Source: Candidatus Poribacteria bacterium
GTDB taxonomy: Bacteria > Poribacteria > WGA-4E > PCPOR2b
Assembly: GCA_965215015.1 (NCBI GenBank)
Contig: OZ244042.1
Coordinates: 5,088,001-5,152,000, forward strand
DNA length: 64,000 nt
Direction: 5' to 3'
The notes beneath the pieces were generated by a model. It was given only the letters and a program-made list of their open reading frames with translations. It did no database searches and had not been told where the DNA came from. Of the stretch, positions 50,074 through 60,248 are shown piece by piece. Made by a program: the position numbers and the translations under genes. How positions within the stretch are numbered: position 1 is the stretch's first letter; each line of letters begins with the position of its first letter.

Positions 50074-51081
50074 CTAACCCTCAACCGGAACCACTCCAAT
50101 TCCGGGCAGATTGGGTAAGATGAGTTTACCCGCCTCAAGTGTTACACCACGATATGGATCATTCGCAATGAGTAGATGTCCATCCAGATCCGCGTAATCT
50201 ACAAGCGGTGTGAGATGCGCTGCTGCCGTGATGCCTAGGGAACTTTCAATCATACAACCAATCATCACTTGCAGCCCATGCGCTCGTGCAATGTGGATGA
50301 TTCGCATCGCTTCAAGCAAACCGCCGCATTTGACCAACTTAATGTTGATACCATCAACACAACCGACCAGCGAAGGTATGTCTGCAGCACGTTTCACACT
50401 TTCATCGGCGAAAATCGGGAGCTCCGAGTGCTCGCGGACAAACTTTAATCCCTCCAAATCGTCCGGCTTTGTGGGTTGCTCGATCAGTTCAATACCGTAG
50501 GGAACAAGCTCACGAATTTTACGAACTGCCTCTTTGGGAGTCCACGCCGTGTTGGCATCTACATAGATTGGTTTATCCGTGACCTCACGGAGTGCACGGA
50601 TGAGCTCCAAGTCACGGTGGCTGCCAAGTTTAACCTTGAGGAGGGGATATGCCTCCGCTTCACGCGCCTTTTGCTGCATAAGCTCCGGCTCATCAAGTCC
50701 GATTGTGAAGGTGGTAAGCGGCGTACCCGTTGGATCGAGCCCCCAGAGCCGATAAAGCGGTACACTTAACTTTTTGCCAAGCCGGTCGTGCAGGGCCATA
50801 TCAATCGCGGACTTTGCAGCGTAATTCCGTCCGAGAATTGATTCAAGCTCGGACATCACGCTCTCAATAGCATCAAGATTTCCATCAAGACCCGTATCGA
50901 GGAGGTCACAAGCGACTTGAACCGTTTCAACGGTTTCGCCGTAGAAGCGCGCGGGAGCCGTTTCACCCAGTCCGCCATCAATTTCAACAGAAATCACTTG
51001 ACGGAATTCATCAACGGCTCGCCTGGCAATCTTGAAGGGATGGATAAGTTTGAGATCCGTGACCTGATATCGGATATTCAT
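50074..51081 (-). CDS. L-Ala-D/L-Glu (dipeptide) epimerase, enolase superfamily
   Basis: FKIAR, KVKLG, VDAN, IEQP, ADES, NIKLVKCGG, GCMIES, DLDG. Confidence 0.9.
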   Translation of the reverse strand: MNIRYQVTDLKLIHPFKIARRAVDEFRQVISVEIDGGLGETAPARFYGETVETVQVACDLLDTGLDGNLDAIESVMSELESILGRNYAAKSAIDMALHDRLGKKLSVPLYRLWGLDPTGTPLTTFTIGLDEPELMQQKAREAEAYPLLKVKLGSHRDLELIRALREVTDKPIYVDANTAWTPKEAVRKIRELVPYGIELIEQPTKPDDLEGLKFVREHSELPIFADESVKRAADIPSLVGCVDGINIKLVKCGGLLEAMRIIHIARAHGLQVMIGCMIESSLGITAAAHLTPLVDYADLDGHLLIANDPYRGVTLEAGKLILPNLPGIGVVPVEG

Positions 51082-51099
51082 AAAGCGGGTGCAAAACTT

Positions 51100-51236
51100 T
51101 TGAGTTTGTAGTCGCGCAATTCAACCCACGTCTTTAAGGGAGCCGGCATACAGCGTATGCCGACCCTTCCCCTTGCTTGCGGGGGGACTGAGGGGGGTAC
51201 GACACAGTGGGGCGTGCCGACTCCTGTCGGATGAAC
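51100..51236. repeat. REP-pair module
   Basis: TTGAGTTTGTAGTCGCGCAATTCAACCCACGTCTTTAAGGGAG, GGCATAC..GTATGCC, CCCCTTGCTTGCGGGGGG, CGTGCCGACTCCTGTCGGATG. Confidence 0.7.
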
Positions 51237-51425
51237 CTGTAGTTTGCTTAATTGCGTACCAGTTAAACTCGGGCAGTTGCAAATTTCTGATCGACCGACG
51301 TTTTCAGCTAAGTATAGTATGATGGTGAGTAATTGTCAAGAGGGTTTTCTACTTTGGCGTGTTGATCCATCTTTTTACACAAACAATCACATTTCACAAT
51401 TTGTTAATTTTTTTTTCAACTTTAA

Positions 51426-51455
51426 TGCAACTTTTTGCTGTGTCATTCGTAGTAA
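51426..51455 (+). promoter_or_regulatory. ECF-type promoter copy 1
   Basis: TGCAAC-N16-CGTAGTAA; related copies at 52887 and 53051. Confidence 0.65.
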
Positions 51456-51485
51456 AGGCAACCCGAAGTAAAAAACATAGAAGAA

Positions 51486-51632
51486 TAGGAGTTACGCCCT
51501 TCAGTTTGTAGTAGTGCAATTCAACCAGCGTCTTTAAGGGAGTAGGCATACGCCGTATACCGTCCCCTCCCCCTCGCTTGCGGGAGTTAGGGGGGGACGG
51601 CACAGTGGAGCGTGCCTACCACTGTCGGATGA
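51486..51632. repeat. REP-pair module with MITE end, between promoter and gene A0
   Basis: TAGGAGTTACGC end then the same module order as 51100-51236. Confidence 0.7.
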
Positions 51633-51778
51633 TCGGTAGACACATGGGTATAGGCAAAAAGGTATTACGCCTCGCTGTCGCTTTATTGGTGCTGATGCCT
51701 CAGTATATTGCGTCCATAATTTACTTTATCTTCCGGCTTGATGAGTCGCTTAACAAAAACACAGAAGGAGGCAAAACC

Positions 51779-52552
51779 GTGCTCTTTACAGGTAAGCAGA
51801 AGCTGGTGATAGGTGGAGCGATACTGTTCGCTGCGCTATTCGTTGTGGGTAGTTATTTCGGCAGCCACTGGTACTATGGCGATATTGAGCCGGTGCCAGA
51901 GCATCTGCTGACAATAGAGCCGCGCCCCCCAATAGTGAGCCAAGAAACGCCCGTTTCTGGCTCTCAGGATATGGAAGGACTTGAATCGTTATCGGTTGCA
52001 GAGACAGGAGAATTATCCGGTGGTAATGCTGTTTCGACACCCCTTGCGGATATAACCGATAATGAACTAGACGCACTTTTACAAGAGTTGGATGAGTCCC
52101 CTGATGAAAAGGGGGATTTTCCTGAAGTCCCCGACGGATTTCCCTCAGACCTCACCCCCGTTTGGATCGAGTATCCCGATTATAAAAAGGGGAATATGTA
52201 TGAGCATGAGATGATTTACCGTGTTTTAATAAAACTGTGGAATCAGGGAGACCACGATTTTGTGAATGGCGTTTACAGGCATGATAAGGTCTACCCCCTT
52301 TATCGCGATGTGCTGTATGTTGGCTGGAAGGAAACGGTCTTGGACACTGCTGATGGCCCGCTTACAGTCCGGTTTGTATCTAGGGCAACTGGCACCCATG
52401 CCAGATCTTCTGCTAAAGAAGATATGATCGGAGGTGCTTTTTCGTTTCAAGATTTTATTACGGGGGATTATAAAACGAGATATCCCGGACTAAAACTTGT
52501 TGAGTATGAGAATGGAGGGTATAACCCTGAAACCTTTCTCGCTAACGATTAG
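51779..52552 (+). CDS. Family-A membrane-anchored protein, copy A0 (most diverged; unknown function)
   Basis: LVIGG..LF...YFGSHWYYGDIEP anchor, acidic linker, FPEVP, RVLIKLWNQG, VYP, YNPETFL; GTG start after AGGAGG. Confidence 0.8.
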   Translation: MLFTGKQKLVIGGAILFAALFVVGSYFGSHWYYGDIEPVPEHLLTIEPRPPIVSQETPVSGSQDMEGLESLSVAETGELSGGNAVSTPLADITDNELDALLQELDESPDEKGDFPEVPDGFPSDLTPVWIEYPDYKKGNMYEHEMIYRVLIKLWNQGDHDFVNGVYRHDKVYPLYRDVLYVGWKETVLDTADGPLTVRFVSRATGTHARSSAKEDMIGGAFSFQDFITGDYKTRYPGLKLVEYENGGYNPETFLAND

Positions 52553-52631
52553 AAATTTCTCTGTTTGGAGGAAGTTTCTATCAACATAGCAGAATCCTTG
52601 GCACGGTAAACGAAGGAGAGGCCGCTGAAGG

Positions 52632-52667
52632 GGTATCCGCCATTTTTCCGGTGGATACCGCTTTTTT
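52632..52667 (+). terminator. Intrinsic terminator after A0
   Basis: GGTATCCGCC-loop-GGTGGATACC-GC-TTTTTT. Confidence 0.6.
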
Positions 52668-52749
52668 GGGGCATCGCTTCCTTTCCGTTCCGCGGCAGAC
52701 AATCTGTAGAAGGTGTTTTGAGAAAACCGATACACCCTCCCGCCGTGGC

Positions 52750-52859
52750 TTATAACCCAGAACCGTTATCAGCCCCTTTTCTCCTCTTCCACGCCTTGAC
52801 GACCTCCCCCGGCGTCAGCGGCTCTCCCAGATACGCACACCAATCGCGTCATAAATCGC
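52750..52859 (-). pseudogene. Duplicated, diverged 3' end of the molybdo-enzyme large subunit gene
   Basis: Reads AIYDAIGVRIWE/PLTPGEVVKAWKRRKGADNGSGL* versus intact AIYDAIGVRIWEQPLTPEKVVKAWKEKERSSNGSGL*; 29 bp identical (52831-52859 = 57979-58007). Confidence 0.85.
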
Positions 52860-52886
52860 AATTTGTTAATTTTTTTCAAACGTTGA

Positions 52887-52916
52887 TGCAACTTTTCGCT
52901 ACGTCATTCGTAGTAA
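52887..52916 (+). promoter_or_regulatory. ECF-type promoter copy 2
   Basis: TGCAAC-N16-CGTAGTAA within a ~75-bp block duplicated from 51398-51475. Confidence 0.65.
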
Positions 52917-53050
52917 AGGCAACCCGACCTAAAAAATCCAACAAAAATATAATATGTTCACAAATGTGTTTCTCAATCTGGTAGAATAATACCAAGCACA
53001 GGTCGTGTATCTACTCAATAATCAAGATGATATCAAAAGCGTGATTTTGA

Positions 53051-53080
53051 TGTAACTTTTCGTCATAGCATTTGTAGCAA
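53051..53080 (+). promoter_or_regulatory. ECF-type promoter copy 3 (directly upstream of sigma gene)
   Basis: TGTAAC-N16-TGTAGCAA, 30 nt before the ATG with AAGGAGG RBS. Confidence 0.55.
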
Positions 53081-53110
53081 GGACAGTCTCATACTAAAGG
53101 AGGTGTTCCT

Positions 53111-53653
53111 ATGCTAGAGGCAGTGTTTCTTGATCTTGTCAAGCAGCACCAAGGACAGGTCTATCAATACGCGCTGTACCTGCTCAATGACAAAGAGGAA
53201 GCGGAGGATGTGACTCAGGAAACTTTTATCAAAGCGTGGAATTACAATGCTGAATTACATCTTGAGACGGTCCAATCATGGTTGCTCAAATGCGCCAATC
53301 ATTTATGTATTGACCTGTTACGCCGCCGTCGATTTCGAGTACCGTTGACAGTGGGGGATACCGAAGAAATTGAAACGCTGGCACACTATCAGCGCGAGGG
53401 CGTAGCATCTCAATCATCAAATCCGTCGCCGGAAGCACTCTGCATCAGGGGAGAACATCAACAGTTGGTGCAGCAAGCCATTGCTCAACTCCCTCTCCAT
53501 TTTCGTACGGTTGTGATTATGCACGCAATAAATGACTTGAGTTTTGAGGAGATTGCGAAAACGCTCAATCAACCTGTCGGCACCGTGAAATCGAACATGT
53601 TTCGCGGAAAAAAAAGATTGCGGGAGATACTGCGAAACCTTATGAGGGGGTGA
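53111..53653 (+). CDS. ECF RNA polymerase sigma factor
   Basis: EAEDVTQETFIKAW, WLLKCANHLCID, SFEEIAKTLNQPVGTVKS. Confidence 0.92.
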   Translation: MLEAVFLDLVKQHQGQVYQYALYLLNDKEEAEDVTQETFIKAWNYNAELHLETVQSWLLKCANHLCIDLLRRRRFRVPLTVGDTEEIETLAHYQREGVASQSSNPSPEALCIRGEHQQLVQQAIAQLPLHFRTVVIMHAINDLSFEEIAKTLNQPVGTVKSNMFRGKKRLREILRNLMRG

Positions 53654-53672
53654 ATCGCTGAAACGAGATATA

Positions 53673-53957
53673 ATGACACAAGGGATACATTGTGAGGACG
53701 TCCATACAGTTTTGGAAGAATACTTTGTCGGTGAACTGAACGCCGACGCTCAAGCGACAGCTGAGACACACATTGCTACATGTCAAGGTTGCCAAAATGA
53801 GTTGAACTTCGCACTCCAAATTGATGATATACTGAAGGAGATGCCCAAACCGGCCCCACCTTCGGAGGTTTTTGATCAGGTTGAGGCCTATGTTCAATCT
53901 CATCCAAACCCCACTGCTCGGGAAATGTCAACATGCCCTAGGTTCAACATGCCCTAG
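53673..53957 (+). CDS. zf-HC2 anti-sigma factor, probably C-terminally truncated
   Basis: HIATCQGC motif; no TM helix; ends in the tandem 16-mer TCAACATGCCCTAGGT x2. Confidence 0.75.
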   Translation: MTQGIHCEDVHTVLEEYFVGELNADAQATAETHIATCQGCQNELNFALQIDDILKEMPKPAPPSEVFDQVEAYVQSHPNPTAREMSTCPRFNMP

Positions 53958-53999
53958 GTTGAGGAACCTTTACACCTATCAAAACGGAAGGAGAGTCTC

Positions 54000-54776
54000 A
54001 TGAAAACCGTATTAGACTTAATGCGTCAACCGTTAGTTATCGGTGCACTCGTATTAAGTATTCTCATTGTCAGTGGCGCGTATTTCGGCAGCCACTGGTA
54101 CTATGGTGATATTGAACCTGTCGAGAGGCCGACGGTCTCTGCACCGACTCCACTCCCGCCTAAAAGTCTTTCCCCCGCTGAAGTTGATTTGAGTGGTTTG
54201 CAAGAGGAATCATTACCTCTGCAAATGGGATCAACGCCTACAGTTCCGCCGGCAGAGAACGAGTCAGTCGATGATTTCTTGGTAGGGTTGTCGGATGAGG
54301 AGAAAGCCTTGTTGACGGCTGAAGTCGTGGAGGAGACTCAGCCGGTTTCCCCCTTTGGCTTCGGTCCATATCCCGAAGTGCCTTCAGATTATCCCGATGC
54401 GCCTATTTGGGAACGATATGATTACCCCGAAGGTGATGGGGAGTTTGGAAACGATTTTATGCAGTCTCTGGAATTGATAGATCGGGTCTTAATTAAACTC
54501 TGGAAGCAGGGTCGTAGGGCCACCTCTGCAAAAATGAATAGTAGTGGGATTGTCTATCCAGGATATCCCGATACGGTTTATGTTACATGGGCTTATGTTG
54601 AGGAACCCGATGGGACCCTTAGCCGCTATGCTTCTGACATATCGAGCGGGCCGGATGTGCCGCTGAGTGTCCATGATACTATAAGCGATGAGGGGATTAT
54701 TCCGTTCGGTATAAAGGTGCTCAGTCATGATACCGATGGAATAAATCCTTACACTTTTTTGAATCTCAATCAATAA
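54000..54776 (+). CDS. Family-A membrane-anchored protein, copy A1
   Basis: TM anchor, YFGSHWYYGD, SPFGFGPYPEVP, ELIDRVLIKLWKQG, GINPYTFLNLNQ. Confidence 0.85.
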   Translation: MKTVLDLMRQPLVIGALVLSILIVSGAYFGSHWYYGDIEPVERPTVSAPTPLPPKSLSPAEVDLSGLQEESLPLQMGSTPTVPPAENESVDDFLVGLSDEEKALLTAEVVEETQPVSPFGFGPYPEVPSDYPDAPIWERYDYPEGDGEFGNDFMQSLELIDRVLIKLWKQGRRATSAKMNSSGIVYPGYPDTVYVTWAYVEEPDGTLSRYASDISSGPDVPLSVHDTISDEGIIPFGIKVLSHDTDGINPYTFLNLNQ

Positions 54777-54787
54777 GGAGAAATACA

Positions 54788-55078
54788 ATGCGTAACCGAT
54801 TTTTGGTGGTTTTTATAGCCTGTCTTTTTGCTACTTTCTCCGTATTTCCGTTTGTGGCACTAAGCAGATAGGAATGTAAGCAAGGTGTCTGTGCCGAAGG
54901 GAGAGTATACGGTGGATCCAAGCTCAGAGCGAAGGCAAGGGTCTCTAGCACAAGCTCCTATGATGGTCGATGGACATATAGCATCAAGGCCGGAAGCCAG
55001 AAAGAAAGTAATGAGGATATTTATCGGCAAGGCTATAGTGAAACATGGGAGGTATCGGCTTATACCGCGACCGCATGA
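54788..55078 (+). pseudogene. Family-B small secreted protein, copy B1 (amber at codon 28, 3'-truncated)
   Basis: MRNRFLVVFIACLFATFSVFPFVALSR*ECKQGVCAEGRVYGGSKLRAKARVSS...WEVSAYTATA*, collinear with B2; absent from the ORF track. Confidence 0.8.
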
Positions 55079-55158
55079 CTTCTAACCTTCGCCTCCTGTT
55101 AGGCTTTGCCTAACAAGCTGTTCAGAAGCTGAAGGTTGAAAGTCTTGGAGAAAGTCCG
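55075..55158 (+). promoter_or_regulatory. Hairpin leader upstream of A2 (repeat copy 1)
   Basis: GACTTCTAACCTTC...GAAGGTTGAAAGTC outer stem, TGTTAGGC-TTT-GCCTAACA inner stem, ending just before GGAG RBS. Confidence 0.55.
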
Positions 55159-55923
55159 ATGAAAACCTTATTAGATTTAATCCGCCAACCGTTGGTTATC
55201 GGTGCGTTTGTCTTAAGCATTCTCATTGTCGTCGGTGCGTATTTCGGGAGCCACTGGTACTATGGTGATGTTGAATCTATCGCCATACCAGAAAACTCAC
55301 CGCTCGTGCCCCGTCCACCTGAGCCGGTCCCTGAAGTCAACTTAGAGGGCCTATCCGCTGAATCCGAACAAACGCCAATTGAATCAACATCTACCCCGAT
55401 TATCGGGGTGGAGAACGAGTCAGTCGATGATTTCTTGGCAGGGGTGTCGGATGAGGAGAAAGCCCGGTTGATGGCTGAAGTCATGGAGGAGACTCAGCCG
55501 GTTTCCCCCTTTGGCTTCGGTCCATATCCCAAAGTGCCTTCAGATTTTCCCGGAGATATCATTTGGGAAACGGTGGATATGTATGAAAAAATCAATCAAC
55601 ATGGACGCGGCATGATGAAGGCAATGGAATTGATGGATCGGGTGTTAATTAAACTTTGGAATCAGGGACATCACGCGACCTCTGCTTCAATGGAGAGAGG
55701 ACTCGTCTATCCAGGATTTCCCAACACGGTTTATGTCGAATGGGCTTACACCGAAGAACCAGATGGCACAGTGACCCGATATGCTTCCGAAATAACGAGT
55801 AGTTATGATGTACCGCAGAGTGTCCATGATGCTCTAAGCGAGGGAATCGTTCCGCCCAATATAACCGCGCTTGGCTATGATGATGGAATTGATCCCTACA
55901 CTTTTTTGAATCTCAACCAATAA
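55159..55923 (+). CDS. Family-A membrane-anchored protein, copy A2
   Basis: Same architecture and motifs as A1. Confidence 0.85.
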   Translation: MKTLLDLIRQPLVIGAFVLSILIVVGAYFGSHWYYGDVESIAIPENSPLVPRPPEPVPEVNLEGLSAESEQTPIESTSTPIIGVENESVDDFLAGVSDEEKARLMAEVMEETQPVSPFGFGPYPKVPSDFPGDIIWETVDMYEKINQHGRGMMKAMELMDRVLIKLWNQGHHATSASMERGLVYPGFPNTVYVEWAYTEEPDGTVTRYASEITSSYDVPQSVHDALSEGIVPPNITALGYDDGIDPYTFLNLNQ

Positions 55924-55934
55924 GGAAAAATAAA

Positions 55935-56303
55935 ATGCGTAGACGTTTTTGGGTTGGTTTGATAACCTGTCTTTTTGCTACTTTTTCCATATCCCCCCTT
56001 ATGGCAATAAGCAAGCAAAAATGTGACGGACCGGTATGTGGCAGTACGAGAGTATCAGGTGGGTCAAGGCTAAGAGCGAGGGCGACAGTCCGTTCTCCGA
56101 GCAACTGTTGGGGTGGATGGGGAATAACGGTGCGCGCTGGAAATCTGGGTAAAAACCCTTCAGACTATTACACAAAAGGGACAAGAAAGTCTGCGGAAGT
56201 CGAGGCGTATACGTCAAATGCGGCGGCATCAGTGTGGATTACCGGATATAATAAGTATGGCAATTCTTATGATGTCTATGTCTCTGAGAGGTCTGGTGGT
56301 TGA
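55935..56303 (+). CDS. Family-B small secreted basic protein, copy B2 (intact)
   Basis: Sec-type signal (MRRRFW...PLMA), CxxxxC, Gly/Ser/Arg/Tyr-rich ~98-aa mature part; RBS overlaps the A2 stop. Confidence 0.75.
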   Translation: MRRRFWVGLITCLFATFSISPLMAISKQKCDGPVCGSTRVSGGSRLRARATVRSPSNCWGGWGITVRAGNLGKNPSDYYTKGTRKSAEVEAYTSNAAASVWITGYNKYGNSYDVYVSERSGG

Positions 56304-56620
56304 TGCACCGTAGGGGTCAATCCTGATGAAACGAAACTGATGGAAACGGCACGTGAAAACGTTTCATGGCGGTGTTTCCTTGGGGTGTTTTGGGGCATTG
56401 TTAGGTATCACCAACAAACTGTCTAAGATACCCTTTTTTGACTGTATCGCGGTTCTATGAATCGTTGAGTCTCCTAACAGTCTGCCTCATTCGCTTTGAG
56501 TTTCGCAAACCGTTTGCCGATGCGCTCAGTGAGTGTAGGGCGGGACGGTGGTAACTGCGCTAATAGTCTGTGTGTCTCGTTTGTTTGTGTAGGGCTTCAC
56601 GCAGATGGTCTATCAACAAA

Positions 56621-56704
56621 ATGACTTCTAACCTTCGCCCCCTGTTAGGCTTTGCCTAACAGGCTGTTCAGAAGCTGAAGGTTGAAAGTCTTGGAGAAAG
56701 TCCG
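56621..56704 (+). promoter_or_regulatory. Hairpin leader upstream of A3 (repeat copy 2)
   Basis: Differs from 55075-55158 at two positions by eye. Confidence 0.55.
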
Positions 56705-57475
56705 ATGAAAACCTTATTAGATTTAATCCGCCAACCGTTGGTTATTGGTGCGTTTGTCTTAAGCATTCTCATTGTCGTCGGTGCGTATTTCGGGAGCCAC
56801 TGGTACTATGGTGATGTTGAATCTATCGCCATACCAGAAAACTCACCGCTCGTGCCCCGTCCACCTGAGCCGGTCCCTGAAGTCAACTTAGAGGGCCTAT
56901 CCGCTGAATCCGAACAAACGCCAATTGAATCAACATCTACCCCGATTATCGGGGTGGAGAACGAGTCAGTCGATGATTTCTTGGCAGGGGTGTCGGATGA
57001 GGAGAAAGCCCGGTTGATGGCTGAAGTCGTAGAGGAGACTCAGCCGGTTTCCCCCTTTGGCTTCGGTCCATATCCCGAAGTGCCTCCAGATTATCCCAAT
57101 GCGCCTATTTGGGAACGGTACGATTACCCCGAAGGTGATGGGGAGTTTGGAAGCGATTTTATGCGGTCTCTGGAATTGATAAATCGGGTCTTAATTAAGC
57201 TCTGGAAGCAGGGTCGTAGGGCCACCTCTGCTTCAATGGAGAGAGGACTCGTCTATCCAGGATATCCCGATACGGTTTATGTTACATGGGCTTATGTTGA
57301 GGAACCCGATGGGACCCTTAGCCGCTATGCTTCTGACATATCGAGCGGGCCGGATGTGCCGCTGAGTGTCCATGATACTATAAGCGATGAGGGGGTTATT
57401 CCTTTCGGTATAAAGGTGCTCAGTCATGATACCGATGGGATAAATCCTTACACTTTTCTGAATCTCAATCAATAA
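56705..57475 (+). CDS. Family-A membrane-anchored protein, copy A3 (A2/A1 mosaic)
   Basis: N-terminal half near-identical to A2, C-terminal half near-identical to A1, with an A2-type SMERGL patch. Confidence 0.85.
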   Translation: MKTLLDLIRQPLVIGAFVLSILIVVGAYFGSHWYYGDVESIAIPENSPLVPRPPEPVPEVNLEGLSAESEQTPIESTSTPIIGVENESVDDFLAGVSDEEKARLMAEVVEETQPVSPFGFGPYPEVPPDYPNAPIWERYDYPEGDGEFGSDFMRSLELINRVLIKLWKQGRRATSASMERGLVYPGYPDTVYVTWAYVEEPDGTLSRYASDISSGPDVPLSVHDTISDEGVIPFGIKVLSHDTDGINPYTFLNLNQ

Positions 57476-57486
57476 GGAGAAGTAAA

Positions 57487-57513
57487 ATACGTAAACGTTT
57501 TTGGGTTAGATAA
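57487..57513 (+). pseudogene. Family-B stub, copy B3
   Basis: After AAGGAG: ATA CGT AAA CGT TTT TGG GTT AGA TAA, i.e. (M)RKRFWV with lost start, matching the B2 N-terminus. Confidence 0.55.
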
Positions 57514-57788
57514 CTGAAATCCCCTTGAACGCTAAAAGCAAATCCCGATAACAGACTAGGGGCAGCCAGAAGCATCCCTTAAGTCTGATGCTAAAATCGC
57601 TAAAAAGCCCCTGGCGTGAAAGTTTCGGTTTGAGGGATGGTAGTTTTGCCTATCCCTTACCAACACAAACAACACCAGGGGCTTTTTTTTGTTTCGTCTA
57701 GCTGTAAAGTTTTCCAATGCGGGTCGTGAACGTGGGGTGTGTTGATGCTTTGTTGTTAAGGACAATCTCCCTGAACATTATAAAGTAT

Positions 57789-57866
57789 AAGGGTTATGCC
57801 CTTGAGTTTGGAGTCGCGCAATTCAACCCGCGTCTTTAAGGGAGTCGGCATACGCCGTATGCCGTA
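57789..57866. repeat. Partial REP/MITE module
   Basis: TTGAGTTTGGAGTCGCGCAATTCAACCCGCGTCTTTAAGGGAGTCGGCATACGCCGTATGCCGT. Confidence 0.7.
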
Positions 57867-57896
57867 CTCCCAATCGTCCACGCATTCCACCGTGGT

Positions 57897-60248
57897 TTAT
57901 AATCCAGAACCGTTACTGGACCTCTCCTTCTCCTTCCACGCTTTGACAACCTTTTCTGGAGTTAGCGGCTGCTCCCAAATACGCACACCAATCGCGTCAT
58001 AAATCGCGTTGCCGATTGCGGGCGACGTGGGCACCACGACGATTTCACCGGCCCCTTTGGCACCGTAGGGGCCATGCTGGTGCGGGACTTCGACGATAAT
58101 CGACTCCATATATTCGTTCAACGGCATCTCAACGATGGAGGGAATCTTATAGTCCATCAAACTGGCGTTGGTCATCTGTCCACTTGCATCAAAGCACATG
58201 TCCTCGTGCAGCGCGATACCGATACCCATACACCCGCCGCCATAGTTCTGCATTTCGACCCCCTGCGGATTCATCGCCTTGCCGACATCAATCGCGGAGA
58301 CAAACTTCCGAATGCGTACCTGCCCCGTTTCAACGTTGACCTCGACTTCGGCTGCTTGGGCACCGTGTCCCATGTAAGCCATGGGTTGCTCGCCTTGTCC
58401 AGTGTTCGGGTCATGCGGACTCGCGCTGACTTCCCATGTTGCTTTGCCGATGACCTCGACGTCCGCCGGCCGTTTGCCCGCCAGCATCTCCACCACGAAC
58501 AAATCTTCAACTTCAATGGCCTTAGAAGAACCTTTAACGAAGATACGTCCACCGGAAACCTCTAAGTCGTCCGGATGCGCTTCCAACTTGGGTGCGGCGA
58601 GCTCCCGTATCTGGCGTTTCGCATCGTCACACGCCATCCGGGTGGCATTGCCGGTGTGGAAGGTCTGCCGACTGGAACCGGCGACATGGTCGAAGGGCGT
58701 GATCGCGGTGTCCGGGGTGACCAGTTTGACCTGATCAATCTCGATTCCGAACTCATCGGCGACGATTTGCGTGAGAATGGTATAAGCGCCCTGCCCCAAA
58801 TCGACCGCACTGGTTCGCAGTTCGCAGGAAGCATCCTCATGGACCTTTAACTCCGTACTAGAAGCGGTCGGCGCAAAAGAATATTTATTACCTAAAGCGA
58901 TGCCCTTTCCGCGATACCACGGGAATCTCAGCGGTTCAGAGGGGGTTTTCCACTCAATTGCATCAGCGCATTTGGTCAGGCATTCGTGGGCACTGAACGC
59001 ATGGGCGGGCATGGTGATAGCGGTACGCTCGCCTTCGGTCAGCAGGTTATTTATACGCAGTTCAACAGCGTCAATGTCACATTTCCTCGCAATGATGTCC
59101 ATCTGCGTTTCGACCGCCCAAGCGGACTCCGCGCAGCCGTAACCTCGCAACGCACCACCAGAGACGCGGTTGGTATAAACGCCGTAAGAATCTACCCAGA
59201 GTGCAGCTAAACGGTAGGAGCCGGGATAGAGATGCGTGGAGAAAATCGGTTTGAGAATTCCCTCGCCGCTATAACCGCCGCCCCAGAGAATAGAGGTTAC
59301 TTTCCGACCAATCAGGAGGCCATCCCTGGTCACAGCATCTTTTATATCAAAGATGAACGGCGTGCGTGCCGCCGTGGCGGAGAGGTCTTCGGCACGGGTT
59401 AAGATAATTTTGACGGGACGCCGAGCTTTACGGGCAAGTGCAGCGGCGATAGCACCCTCTTTGACTGTCAATTTACCTCCGAAGGCACCACCGACAAATG
59501 GAACGATAACGCGAACTTTGGAGGGCGATAAATCAAGGGCCTTCGCTAAACCATCACGGGCGATGTATGGCGATTGGCCCCCTGCCCAGAGGGTAAGTGT
59601 GCCATCGGAACTCCATTGGGCCACTGCGCCATGGGGCTCCATACAGGCGGTGTGGACATAACCAGTTGCATAACGGTTCTCGATGATTTGTCCGCCTTCG
59701 TCCTCCGCTTTTTTGAACGCGGCGTCAATGTCGCCGTGCCGGATGCGGTACGCCTGCCACAGGTTGGGCGGCCGCTCGTCCATTTCGGCGAGTTCAAGGA
59801 GTTTTTCATACTCTTCGTATTCTTCGTGCAGCACCACCGGTGGGTCTAACTTAATCGCTTCCTCCGGGTCAAAGAGGGGAGGAAGCTCTTCGTATTCGAC
59901 CTCAATCTGTTCACAGGCCGCCCGCGCAATCTCCGGGGTATCCGCAGCGACCGCAGCGACAGGTTCACCGACAAGGCGCGTTTTGTCGTGGGCAAGTAAA
60001 TGCTCATCCAACGTGAGGATGCCGAGCCGTATGTCGGGTAGATCGGCAGCGGTAATCACAGCGCGGACACCGGGCATCTGTTCCGCTTTGCTGGTATCAA
60101 TTCCCACAATCCTTGCATGTGCAAACGGGCTGCGTTTCAGCTTGGCATGAATCATACGAGGCAGCACGATGTCGGTTGTGAATTGTGCAGTTCCAGTTAC
60201 TTTCTCTATGCCATCAATGCGTTTAGCAGAAGTTCCAACAACGTTCAT
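57897..60248 (-). CDS. Xanthine dehydrogenase family molybdopterin-binding large subunit
   Basis: KVTG, MEPH, VGGAFGGK, ALRGYG, DLGQG, GSSR, GAKGAGE. Confidence 0.93.
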   Translation of the reverse strand: MNVVGTSAKRIDGIEKVTGTAQFTTDIVLPRMIHAKLKRSPFAHARIVGIDTSKAEQMPGVRAVITAADLPDIRLGILTLDEHLLAHDKTRLVGEPVAAVAADTPEIARAACEQIEVEYEELPPLFDPEEAIKLDPPVVLHEEYEEYEKLLELAEMDERPPNLWQAYRIRHGDIDAAFKKAEDEGGQIIENRYATGYVHTACMEPHGAVAQWSSDGTLTLWAGGQSPYIARDGLAKALDLSPSKVRVIVPFVGGAFGGKLTVKEGAIAAALARKARRPVKIILTRAEDLSATAARTPFIFDIKDAVTRDGLLIGRKVTSILWGGGYSGEGILKPIFSTHLYPGSYRLAALWVDSYGVYTNRVSGGALRGYGCAESAWAVETQMDIIARKCDIDAVELRINNLLTEGERTAITMPAHAFSAHECLTKCADAIEWKTPSEPLRFPWYRGKGIALGNKYSFAPTASSTELKVHEDASCELRTSAVDLGQGAYTILTQIVADEFGIEIDQVKLVTPDTAITPFDHVAGSSRQTFHTGNATRMACDDAKRQIRELAAPKLEAHPDDLEVSGGRIFVKGSSKAIEVEDLFVVEMLAGKRPADVEVIGKATWEVSASPHDPNTGQGEQPMAYMGHGAQAAEVEVNVETGQVRIRKFVSAIDVGKAMNPQGVEMQNYGGGCMGIGIALHEDMCFDASGQMTNASLMDYKIPSIVEMPLNEYMESIIVEVPHQHGPYGAKGAGEIVVVPTSPAIGNAIYDAIGVRIWEQPLTPEKVVKAWKEKERSSNGSGL

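Follow-up and report, generated by a model that had tools for sequence, protein, structure and literature searches.

We consider a stretch of 64,000 nucleotides (nt) from the genome of a Candidatus Poribacteria bacterium (contig OZ244042.1, positions 5,088,001 to 5,152,000 of the forward strand), which we call the window, and in particular an island at 51.4-57.5 kb of it, whose genes in the open reading frame (ORF) list all lie on the + strand. In the island we see a two-gene envelope module, specific to Poribacteria, in an array that is decaying. The first gene of the module, A, is modelled as a membrane-anchored protein and the second, B, as a small secreted one, and it is well supported that the two are extracytoplasmic, are confined to this lineage and are coupled in translation; they are predicted to bind each other. 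To judge from sequence comparison, the pairs increased in number, recombined with each other and diversified together, giving specificity types. For their function we offer a reading that we hold at somewhat less than even confidence: we infer cognate pairs in which a secreted bioactive B is matched by a membrane-tethered A that serves for immunity or retention.

Four A paralogs, A0 to A3, stand in the island, all with a transmembrane (TM) helix, the motif YFGSHWYYGD, an acidic and proline-rich linker and a head marked by RVLIKLW...PYTFL. A2 (55159..55923) is paired with an intact B2 (55935..56303). A1 (54000..54776), which matches the A profile at 1.1e-97 and has 329 relatives at E<=1e-3, is followed by B1 (54788..55081), a pseudogene with 45% identity to B2 over residues 1-98 and with one TAG and one TGA inside. 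Behind A3 (56705..57475) only a B3 stub is left (57487..57513), with ATA for ATG at 57487, eight codons and then a stop, the remainder being deleted. Each of these B starts lies 11 nt past the A stop, and the TAAGGAG in the gap reads as the ribosome-binding site of B. The fourth paralog, A0 (51779..52552, 35% identity to A2), has the same TM helix, linker and head and stands alone, with no B after it. Its listed ORF is longer (51578-52552, with an A-profile match of 4.6e-57), and the portion upstream of the GTG at 51779 is a passage through a dispersed repeat; this GTG, behind GGAGG, is probably the true start. The earlier note on this DNA had described four such paralogs, each with a TM anchor, a stalk and a C-terminal domain, with a B gene dead, intact or reduced to a stub close behind A1, A2 and A3, and all co-oriented with a pair of genes for an extracytoplasmic function (ECF) sigma factor and its anti-sigma. 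The ORFs and the repeat analysis bear this description out, and the linkage to the sigma and anti-sigma genes is kept in a congener. Its further claim, a repeating A+B module with diversifying domains that retains A and often loses B, holds as well: A0, A1 and A3 are intact and have no live B, and every intact B of the genome, as given below, stands beside an A.

We turn to the intact pair, for which a complex is predicted from residues 112-254 of A2 and residues 27-122 of B2, in three runs with our own alignments and with three controls. The interaction prediction Score from Aligned Errors (ipSAE) between the A2 head and B2 is 0.90, 0.89 and 0.89, against 0.00 for the best of the three controls. 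The contacts all agree between runs, and the partner has a predicted local distance difference test (pLDDT) of at least 90. The ipSAE mark that we apply is reached by 116 of 157 solved complexes and by 2 of 215 mismatched pairs, counts that are only rough for predictions from our own alignments. The A head and B are accordingly modelled as a tight 1:1 complex.

The single-chain model of A2 (72-row alignment, mean pLDDT 79) has an N-terminal TM helix at residues 11-35 with basic residues before it, a disordered linker at residues 42-88 (pLDDT <50), a short conserved helix after the linker (ESVDDFLAxLSDEE) and an alpha/beta head at residues ~112-254, where the pLDDT is mostly >85 and reaches 95-98 over most of the head. 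In the general layout of A, the cytoplasmic part has only ~10 residues, the disordered acidic and proline-rich linker ~70, and the head 140. The basic residues before the TM helix, together with the lipobox on head-only copies of A, put the head outside the cytoplasm, and A is modelled on these grounds as a single-pass inner-membrane protein with a short basic cytoplasmic N-terminus, a TM helix, a linker and an extracytoplasmic head. The head-only copies are three tandem genes elsewhere in the same genome (C1:910678-912238, - strand, loci L009-L011), each behind a lipobox-like signal (…WGCA…); upstream there is a truncated ORF that resembles B, and on either side of the group are paralogs of PD40/TolB-like propeller genes.

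Family scans of A0-A3 against Pfam, NCBIfam, PADLOC and PHROGs give nothing meaningful, and sequence-profile comparison with the PDB gives no significant match for A, where the best E, 0.045, falls on the TM segment. Fold searches were made with the whole A model, the head not being folded separately; Foldseek returns a best E of 0.6 and VIA a best Z of 4.4 in the wide search and 3.5 in a second look, with most rows aligning the TM helix. In the ESM Atlas the A head scores 0.80, below the lead level of 0.9. As modelled, the head is without a known fold match; a new fold is a possibility, which we do not claim as demonstrated.

B is modelled as a Sec-exported beta-sandwich of ~95 residues in its mature form. 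B2 has a Sec signal peptide, its model (pLDDT 87.5) contains nine strands, and it matches the B profile at 1.9e-49. The same four family scans give nothing meaningful for B2 or for the secreted partners found in another family of the phylum, f4. Among 25 B members there is no Pfam match at E<=1, and against PDB sequence profiles the best E is 3.1, which is not significant. The description of A and B as uncharacterised therefore stands. The fold matches of B2 are weak and generic, with ApaG/PDIP38 at a TM-score of 0.49 and Z scores of 6.4 for the MspA rim, 6.4 for CsgH, 6.0 for Formosin D and 5.9 for lactococcin 972; the ESM Atlas score is 0.83, again below the lead level. Besides the start methionine, G60 is the single invariant residue of the B alignment. 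Many B proteins end in (D/E)xSGG at the extreme C-terminus.

The next question is whether the pairing of A and B is general. Beyond the four A genes of the window, the A profile matches at eight further places in the same genome. In the genome as a whole, six of six intact B genes directly adjoin an A and none stands alone. A first survey of 26 regions (6 from this genome and 20 from relatives) contains 19 ORFs of the B family; all 19 adjoin an A on the same strand, 10 of them with the identical 11-nt spacer, and in a few cases B comes before A. The distance from the A stop to the B start is 11-14 nt in most pairs. For a second survey of 72 further loci, we count as a partner any ORF of 60-300 aa that directly follows a gene on its own strand and begins with a signal-peptide-like N-terminus, and such a partner lies behind 56 of 98 A genes (57%), compared with 11 of 246 control genes of the same loci (4.5%). 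The B profile itself matches only 13 of them. An iterated B profile reaches 24 of 68 partners and is still unconverged after five rounds, and the 68 form 28 BLAST clusters. Family f4 has arrays in which the protein encoded 0-16 nt behind each A is secreted, has no Pfam match and differs from one A to the next. Since the downstream secreted partners diverge in this way, the module is a conserved A with a hypervariable secreted partner.

These surveys bear on the simplest alternative, that A and B have no joint function and are neighbouring lineage-specific hypothetical genes, merely co-duplicated. That neither gene has an annotation would agree with it, and co-duplication alone explains part of the co-variation of A and B given below. 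Their adjacency, however, outlasts extreme divergence of B and changes of gene order, and the enrichment of partners over controls and the complex score of 0.89 against 0.00 speak against it as well; we regard this alternative as very improbable.

The array carries the marks of its own history. The 5' 300 nt of A3, including the upstream spacer, have 99% identity to A2, while the 3' part has 93-95% identity to A1; A3 is therefore a recent chimera that joins the beginning of A2 to the end of A1. The spacer concerned is an 84-nt element with the hairpin CCTGTTAGGCTTTGCCTAACA, found at 55075..55158 (+ strand) before A2 and again at 56621..56704 before A3, where the copied segment has 99% identity to 55075-55374 over 300 nt. 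The hairpin itself is perfect and has no T-run (55095-55115 and 56643-56663); it could be an operator, or a site of RNA processing or stability. Spacers in the array of the congener contain a related element, GCCTAACAAG.

The A0 block came by a segmental duplication of 1461 nt, which also carried along a promoter block and a 120-nt piece from the 3' end of a neighbouring dehydrogenase gene. The promoter block is seen as an 88-nt repeat (51387-51475 and 52849-52936), and the dehydrogenase fragment as an 83% copy (52740-52859) of the 3' end of the convergent molybdopterin-dehydrogenase gene (57887-58007), flanking A0. The promoter-like motif at 51425..51452, which lies in the duplicated promoter block, precedes A0, and a terminator-like hairpin with a T-run follows it (52632..52669, + strand; a 10-pair stem with 6 GC pairs and the tail GCTTTTTTGG).

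As a comparison, the congener (same genus, locus L050) has, at the corresponding place in its chromosome, a sigma gene, an anti-sigma gene and five A-B pairs that are all intact, with the flanks of the window: SDR, PEPCK and MR_MLE genes on one side, and the molybdopterin dehydrogenase and a 2Fe-2S subunit on the other. Judging by these sequences, the window array is a reduced version of the congener's, with the A0 block added. Contigs from three other studies contain the locus in related strains, with small differences; the public runs listed include none of RNA.

A dispersed repeat of ~150 nt with the palindrome CGGCATACGCCGTATGCCG lies at 51081-51234, 51481-51632 and 57783-57865 of the window. 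In the same genome it has 119 blastn matches, 81 of them of at least 60 nt, and in metagenome runs its contig depth rises to ~30x that of the neighbouring sequence. It looks like a repetitive extragenic palindromic (REP) or miniature inverted-repeat transposable element (MITE).

Matches to A occur in 132 of 176 genomes of the phylum Poribacteria and are limited to three families of one order (26/28 genomes of f1, 10/11 of f2 and 95/112 of f4); the other eight Poribacteria families have none in 24 genomes. Some genomes have 15 or more matches. A scan of one genome per species over 185,579 species returns 72 loci, 68 labelled Poribacteria and 4 'uncultured bacterium'. Among 1.84 billion representatives, the A profile collects 695 clusters at 50% identity, and the best 150 of these are 168-287 aa long, mostly near 250. 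The portions of the literature on Poribacteria ECF sigma factors and on formosin that we could consult contain no published account of an A/B family.

We now consider how the two proteins have diversified. The predicted A interface comprises residues 132-139, 152-163, 174-181 and 196-227, and over 13 close pairs it has a pairwise identity of 47%, compared with 69% for the rest of the head, making it the most variable part of the head, in a comparison that sets the interface against the whole remaining head, while surface residues vary more anyway. The identity of A heads follows that of their B partners with a Spearman coefficient of 0.77 over 18 pairs, compared with 0.44 for the A N-terminus; such co-variation is also expected from co-duplication alone, and a shared duplication history contributes to it. 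In ten comparisons, the ratio of nonsynonymous to synonymous substitution rates (dN/dS) lies at 0.09-0.31 in the A head and spans 0.22-1.44 in mature B; B2 gives values of 0.95 and 1.44 when compared with two close relatives. By this measure B evolves faster than A.

These observations can be assembled into a proposal. B would be a bioactive secreted protein, bacteriocin-like, that works by binding rather than by catalysis, and A would be its cognate membrane-tethered immunity or retention protein, catching B at the outer face of the inner membrane. Copies of A would stay useful after the death of their B, as may be the case for A0, A1 and A3, in the manner of orphan immunity genes. The protective reading is preferred because it best explains the asymmetry of the pair, in which B is never found without A and intact A persists without B: A0 has its own promoter motif and terminator-like hairpin, and A1 and A3 are intact beside a dead B. 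The reading also fits the recombination within the arrays, the existence of head-only lipoprotein copies and the variability of the interface.

Several points weigh against this reading, beginning with the surface effect and the shared duplication history given above. No toxin family is matched by B in the family scans, and B has no toxicity signature. With one invariant residue besides the methionine, it gives no evident sign of being an enzyme. The loci show neither a lysis or export gene nor a path by which B could cross the outer membrane. Conservation in the N-terminus, TM helix and linker helix of A is on a par with that in the core of the head (66% and 69%); a simple immunity protein would not need this, and it hints at contact with other conserved machinery. 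Finally, the recurrent neighbourhood of sigma factors and sigma-54 activators would also fit signalling.

In a second explanation A is an anchor and B its cargo. A would be a TonB/TolA-like tether, with a linker long enough for the head to carry a variable B at the outer membrane or out in the periplasm; the B proteins would be exchangeable envelope proteins facing the host or phages, and the diversity of the interface would only prevent cross-binding between paralogs. The architecture of A (a TM helix, a disordered proline-rich and acidic linker of ~70 aa and a globular head) resembles that of TonB and TolA, with an N-terminal TM anchor, a proline-rich or extended linker and a small C-terminal periplasmic domain that binds a partner. 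The strong predicted complex, the fast evolution of B, as in exposed proteins, the conserved N-terminus and TM helix of A, the 15 or more matches in a genome and the PD40/TolB-like propeller genes beside several loci all agree with this explanation. An anchor without cargo should decay, however, and the persistence of A genes without B, both A0 with its own promoter motif and terminator and the head-only lipoproteins, speaks against it. The fold searches of the whole A model (head not folded separately) return no TonB/TolA C-terminal domain, and no energising ExbBD- or TolQR-like genes are seen in the loci scanned. Unlike TonB and TolA, A occurs in a genome as many paralogs, each joined to a variable partner of its own. 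We consider the anchor explanation less likely than the protective one.

We return to the protective reading and compare it with known systems. Colicin-Im pairs, periplasmic effector-immunity pairs of the type VI secretion system (T6SS) and arrays with orphan immunity genes form the comparison set. Like the arrays of bacteriocins or polymorphic toxins with their immunity genes, the A-B arrays have tightly linked cognate pairs, a diversifying interface and tandem copies with recombination between cassettes; one partner outlives the other, and the putative protector is outside the cytoplasm, anchored by a TM helix or a lipid. The pattern of orphan A without orphan B, which characterises toxin/immunity pairs, is found here, with none of six intact B genes alone and with A0, A1 and A3 left without a live B. 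Unlike in those systems, neither A nor B is related in sequence or fold to a known toxin or immunity family, B is small, free and Sec-exported and has neither a delivery domain nor a delivery system, and A usually precedes B and has a conserved TM helix and a long linker.

The nearest single likeness is to lactococcin 972 (PDB accession code: 2lgn), a Sec-dependent bacteriocin that is likewise a small secreted beta-sandwich and the best-covering match of B (Z 5.9, root-mean-square deviation 2.3 A, 63 of 66 residues). The likeness speaks for the protective reading, though weakly, and three findings count against it: a Z of ~6 is in the chance range for beta-sandwiches, CsgH, CsgC and the MspA rim score equally, and the Pfam model Lactococcin_972 (PF09683) has no match in the genome even at E 10. 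The immunity genes of the lactococcin 972 family encode ABC-type or multi-pass membrane proteins, unlike A.

We turn our attention to regulation. The sigma gene (53111..53653, + strand) encodes an ECF sigma-70 factor of 180 aa with matches to Sigma70_r2 (4.1e-15), Sigma70_r4_2 (6.7e-15) and TIGR02937 (83.3 bits, cut-off 42.9); having regions 2 and 4 only, it belongs to ECF group 4. The anti-sigma gene starts 19 nt past it (53673..53957, + strand) and encodes a soluble protein of the zinc-finger anti-sigma (ZAS) type, 94 aa long and with no TM segment. The match of this protein to zf-HC2 (E 2e-4) scores 21.8 bits, just below the cut-off of 22.2, and its HxxxCxxC can be read as H33ATC37QGC40, with C7 also present. 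Matches to anti-sigma models of NCBIfam are weak (TIGR03988, RsrA, 25.1 bits with a cut-off of 62.5), and against the PDB the best match, DdvA at E 0.15, is not significant. Two runs of another study have contigs that lack 13 nt around the anti-sigma stop (53944-53957), so strains differ in how the anti-sigma ends. The small soluble anti-sigma recalls SigR-RsrA: the redox-sensitive RsrA has a Cys-26 residues-HxxxCxxC spacing, which C7...H33xxxC37xxC40 of the window protein resembles.

A promoter-like motif of the ECF type (AAC...CGT), ATGYAACTTTT-N-YGTAG, has exactly three matches in the 5.94-Mb genome, all on the + strand of the island: one before A0 (at 51425, ATGCAAC-N16-CGTAG) and two before sigma, a distal copy at 52886..52913, found by the motif search and the repeat analysis, and a proximal one at 53050..53077 (ATGTAAC-N16-TGTAG), which is putatively autoregulatory. 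The orthologous sigma gene of the congener has a copy upstream as well, so that TGYAAC-N16-YGTAG before sigma is conserved. The earlier note had all the genes sharing this motif, which is right for A0 and for sigma (twice) and fails for A1, A2 and A3, none of which is preceded by it in the whole-genome motif search. Because the motif marks only A0 and the sigma operon, the sigma looks like a dedicated, autoregulated regulator of the island, presumably held by the soluble zinc-finger anti-sigma. The suggestion of envelope-stress control fits poorly: an anti-sigma without membrane segment argues against classical envelope-stress sensing through a membrane anti-sigma, and many other A loci have sigma-54 promoters and PspF-like activators instead.

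The sigma-54 connection is seen outside the window. In the congener a perfect sigma-54 box, TGGCACATAAATTGCT, stands ~100 nt further upstream of the promoter motif of sigma, which suggests a cascade from sigma-54 to the ECF factor. Such a cascade would be like that of Pseudomonas syringae, with HrpR/S and sigma-54 acting on the ECF factor HrpL. Across a first set of loci, a -24/-12 box with <=2 mismatches precedes 11 of 59 A ORFs, and four of these boxes are perfect; in a second set a box with <=1 mismatch precedes 18 of 102, out of only 44 occurrences in all 1.17 Mb searched. Activators with Sigma54_activat and HTH_8 domains adjoin A genes in 7 of 20 and in 12 of 72 loci, two sets that overlap in genomes and contain several orthologous loci. 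Activators beside A-B genes together with boxes before A are seen in L051, L052, L053, L055, L058, L059, L066 and L094. The activators of the window's own genus have no receiver domain, a likeness to PspF and to HrpR/S, which are without one too. This type of control, a receiver-less activator with a -24/-12 box, is found at other A loci and not in the window, whose island has no sigma-54 box and which as a whole has 33 matches for 32.8 expected. Unlike the HrpL and SigR systems, the regulon here would consist of A-B cassettes and not of a secretion system or thiol-stress genes, and the RsrA match is far below its cut-off.

With so many regulators at hand, a third explanation has to be weighed, that A-B pairs are periplasmic sensors which feed the neighbouring ECF sigma and anti-sigma or the sigma-54 activators, much as RseB modulates RseA and CpxP modulates CpxA. 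ECF sigma genes adjoin pairs in the window, in the congener and in 6 of 72 loci, PspF-like activators do so with the frequencies given above, and in locus L094 the row is activator, A, B, ECF sigma. The window anti-sigma has no membrane part of its own, and A1 continues in its reading frame beyond one stop codon. Against this stand the cytoplasmic part of A, ~10 residues with no output domain, and the congener, where anti-sigma and A are in different frames. The related idea of a split anti-sigma-A protein was considered and rejected: a search for longer relatives turned up no fused form and just one such protein, of 481 aa, in which a ZAS domain is absent, and the frames of the congener differ. 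Five pairs behind one sigma, and most pairs without a nearby regulator, are unlike sensors, and the sigma-54 boxes before A make A-B a target of the regulators and not an input. We consider the sensor explanation improbable.

A few further genes recur near the A loci. Proteins of 927-1058 aa with an N-terminal ECF sigma domain are encoded at L066:4189-7365 and by ORFs in L107 and L121; the first of these, which was scanned against Pfam, has BNR/Sortilin-type repeats after the sigma domain and adjoins A genes. Another TM-anchored family without Pfam match (330-410 aa, ending ...GPEEGLRRLRENDPEVA...) occurs at C1:1398675-1399853 (- strand) of the same genome, at L054:9200-10429 and at L068:5291-6277. 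Genes like sucCD adjoin the A-B loci L052, L054 and L055. The duplicated spacers of the island agree with cassettes that turn over through recombination and segmental duplication.

Taken in its broadest form, the module could be a previously unseen envelope system, neither a classical toxin-immunity pair nor a sensor. A periplasm-spanning A tether of new fold would hold an interchangeable, fast-diversifying beta-sandwich B, in a dozen or more insulated copies per cell that are switched on by a cascade from sigma-54 to the ECF factor, and would serve self/non-self recognition or a varied display to the sponge host or to phages. This is a speculative picture, to which we give a minor share of our confidence.

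Poribacteria are uncultivated, dominant symbionts of sponges, and we know of few mediators of their competition and of their contact with the host. The A-B module is among the larger lineage-specific expansions of Poribacteria (132 of 176 genomes, 695 clusters, at least 15 matches in some genomes), and A and B would add two protein families to the databases. Its dedicated control by alternative sigma factors, a head without known fold match and a confidently predicted heterodimer make for a concrete, testable hypothesis.

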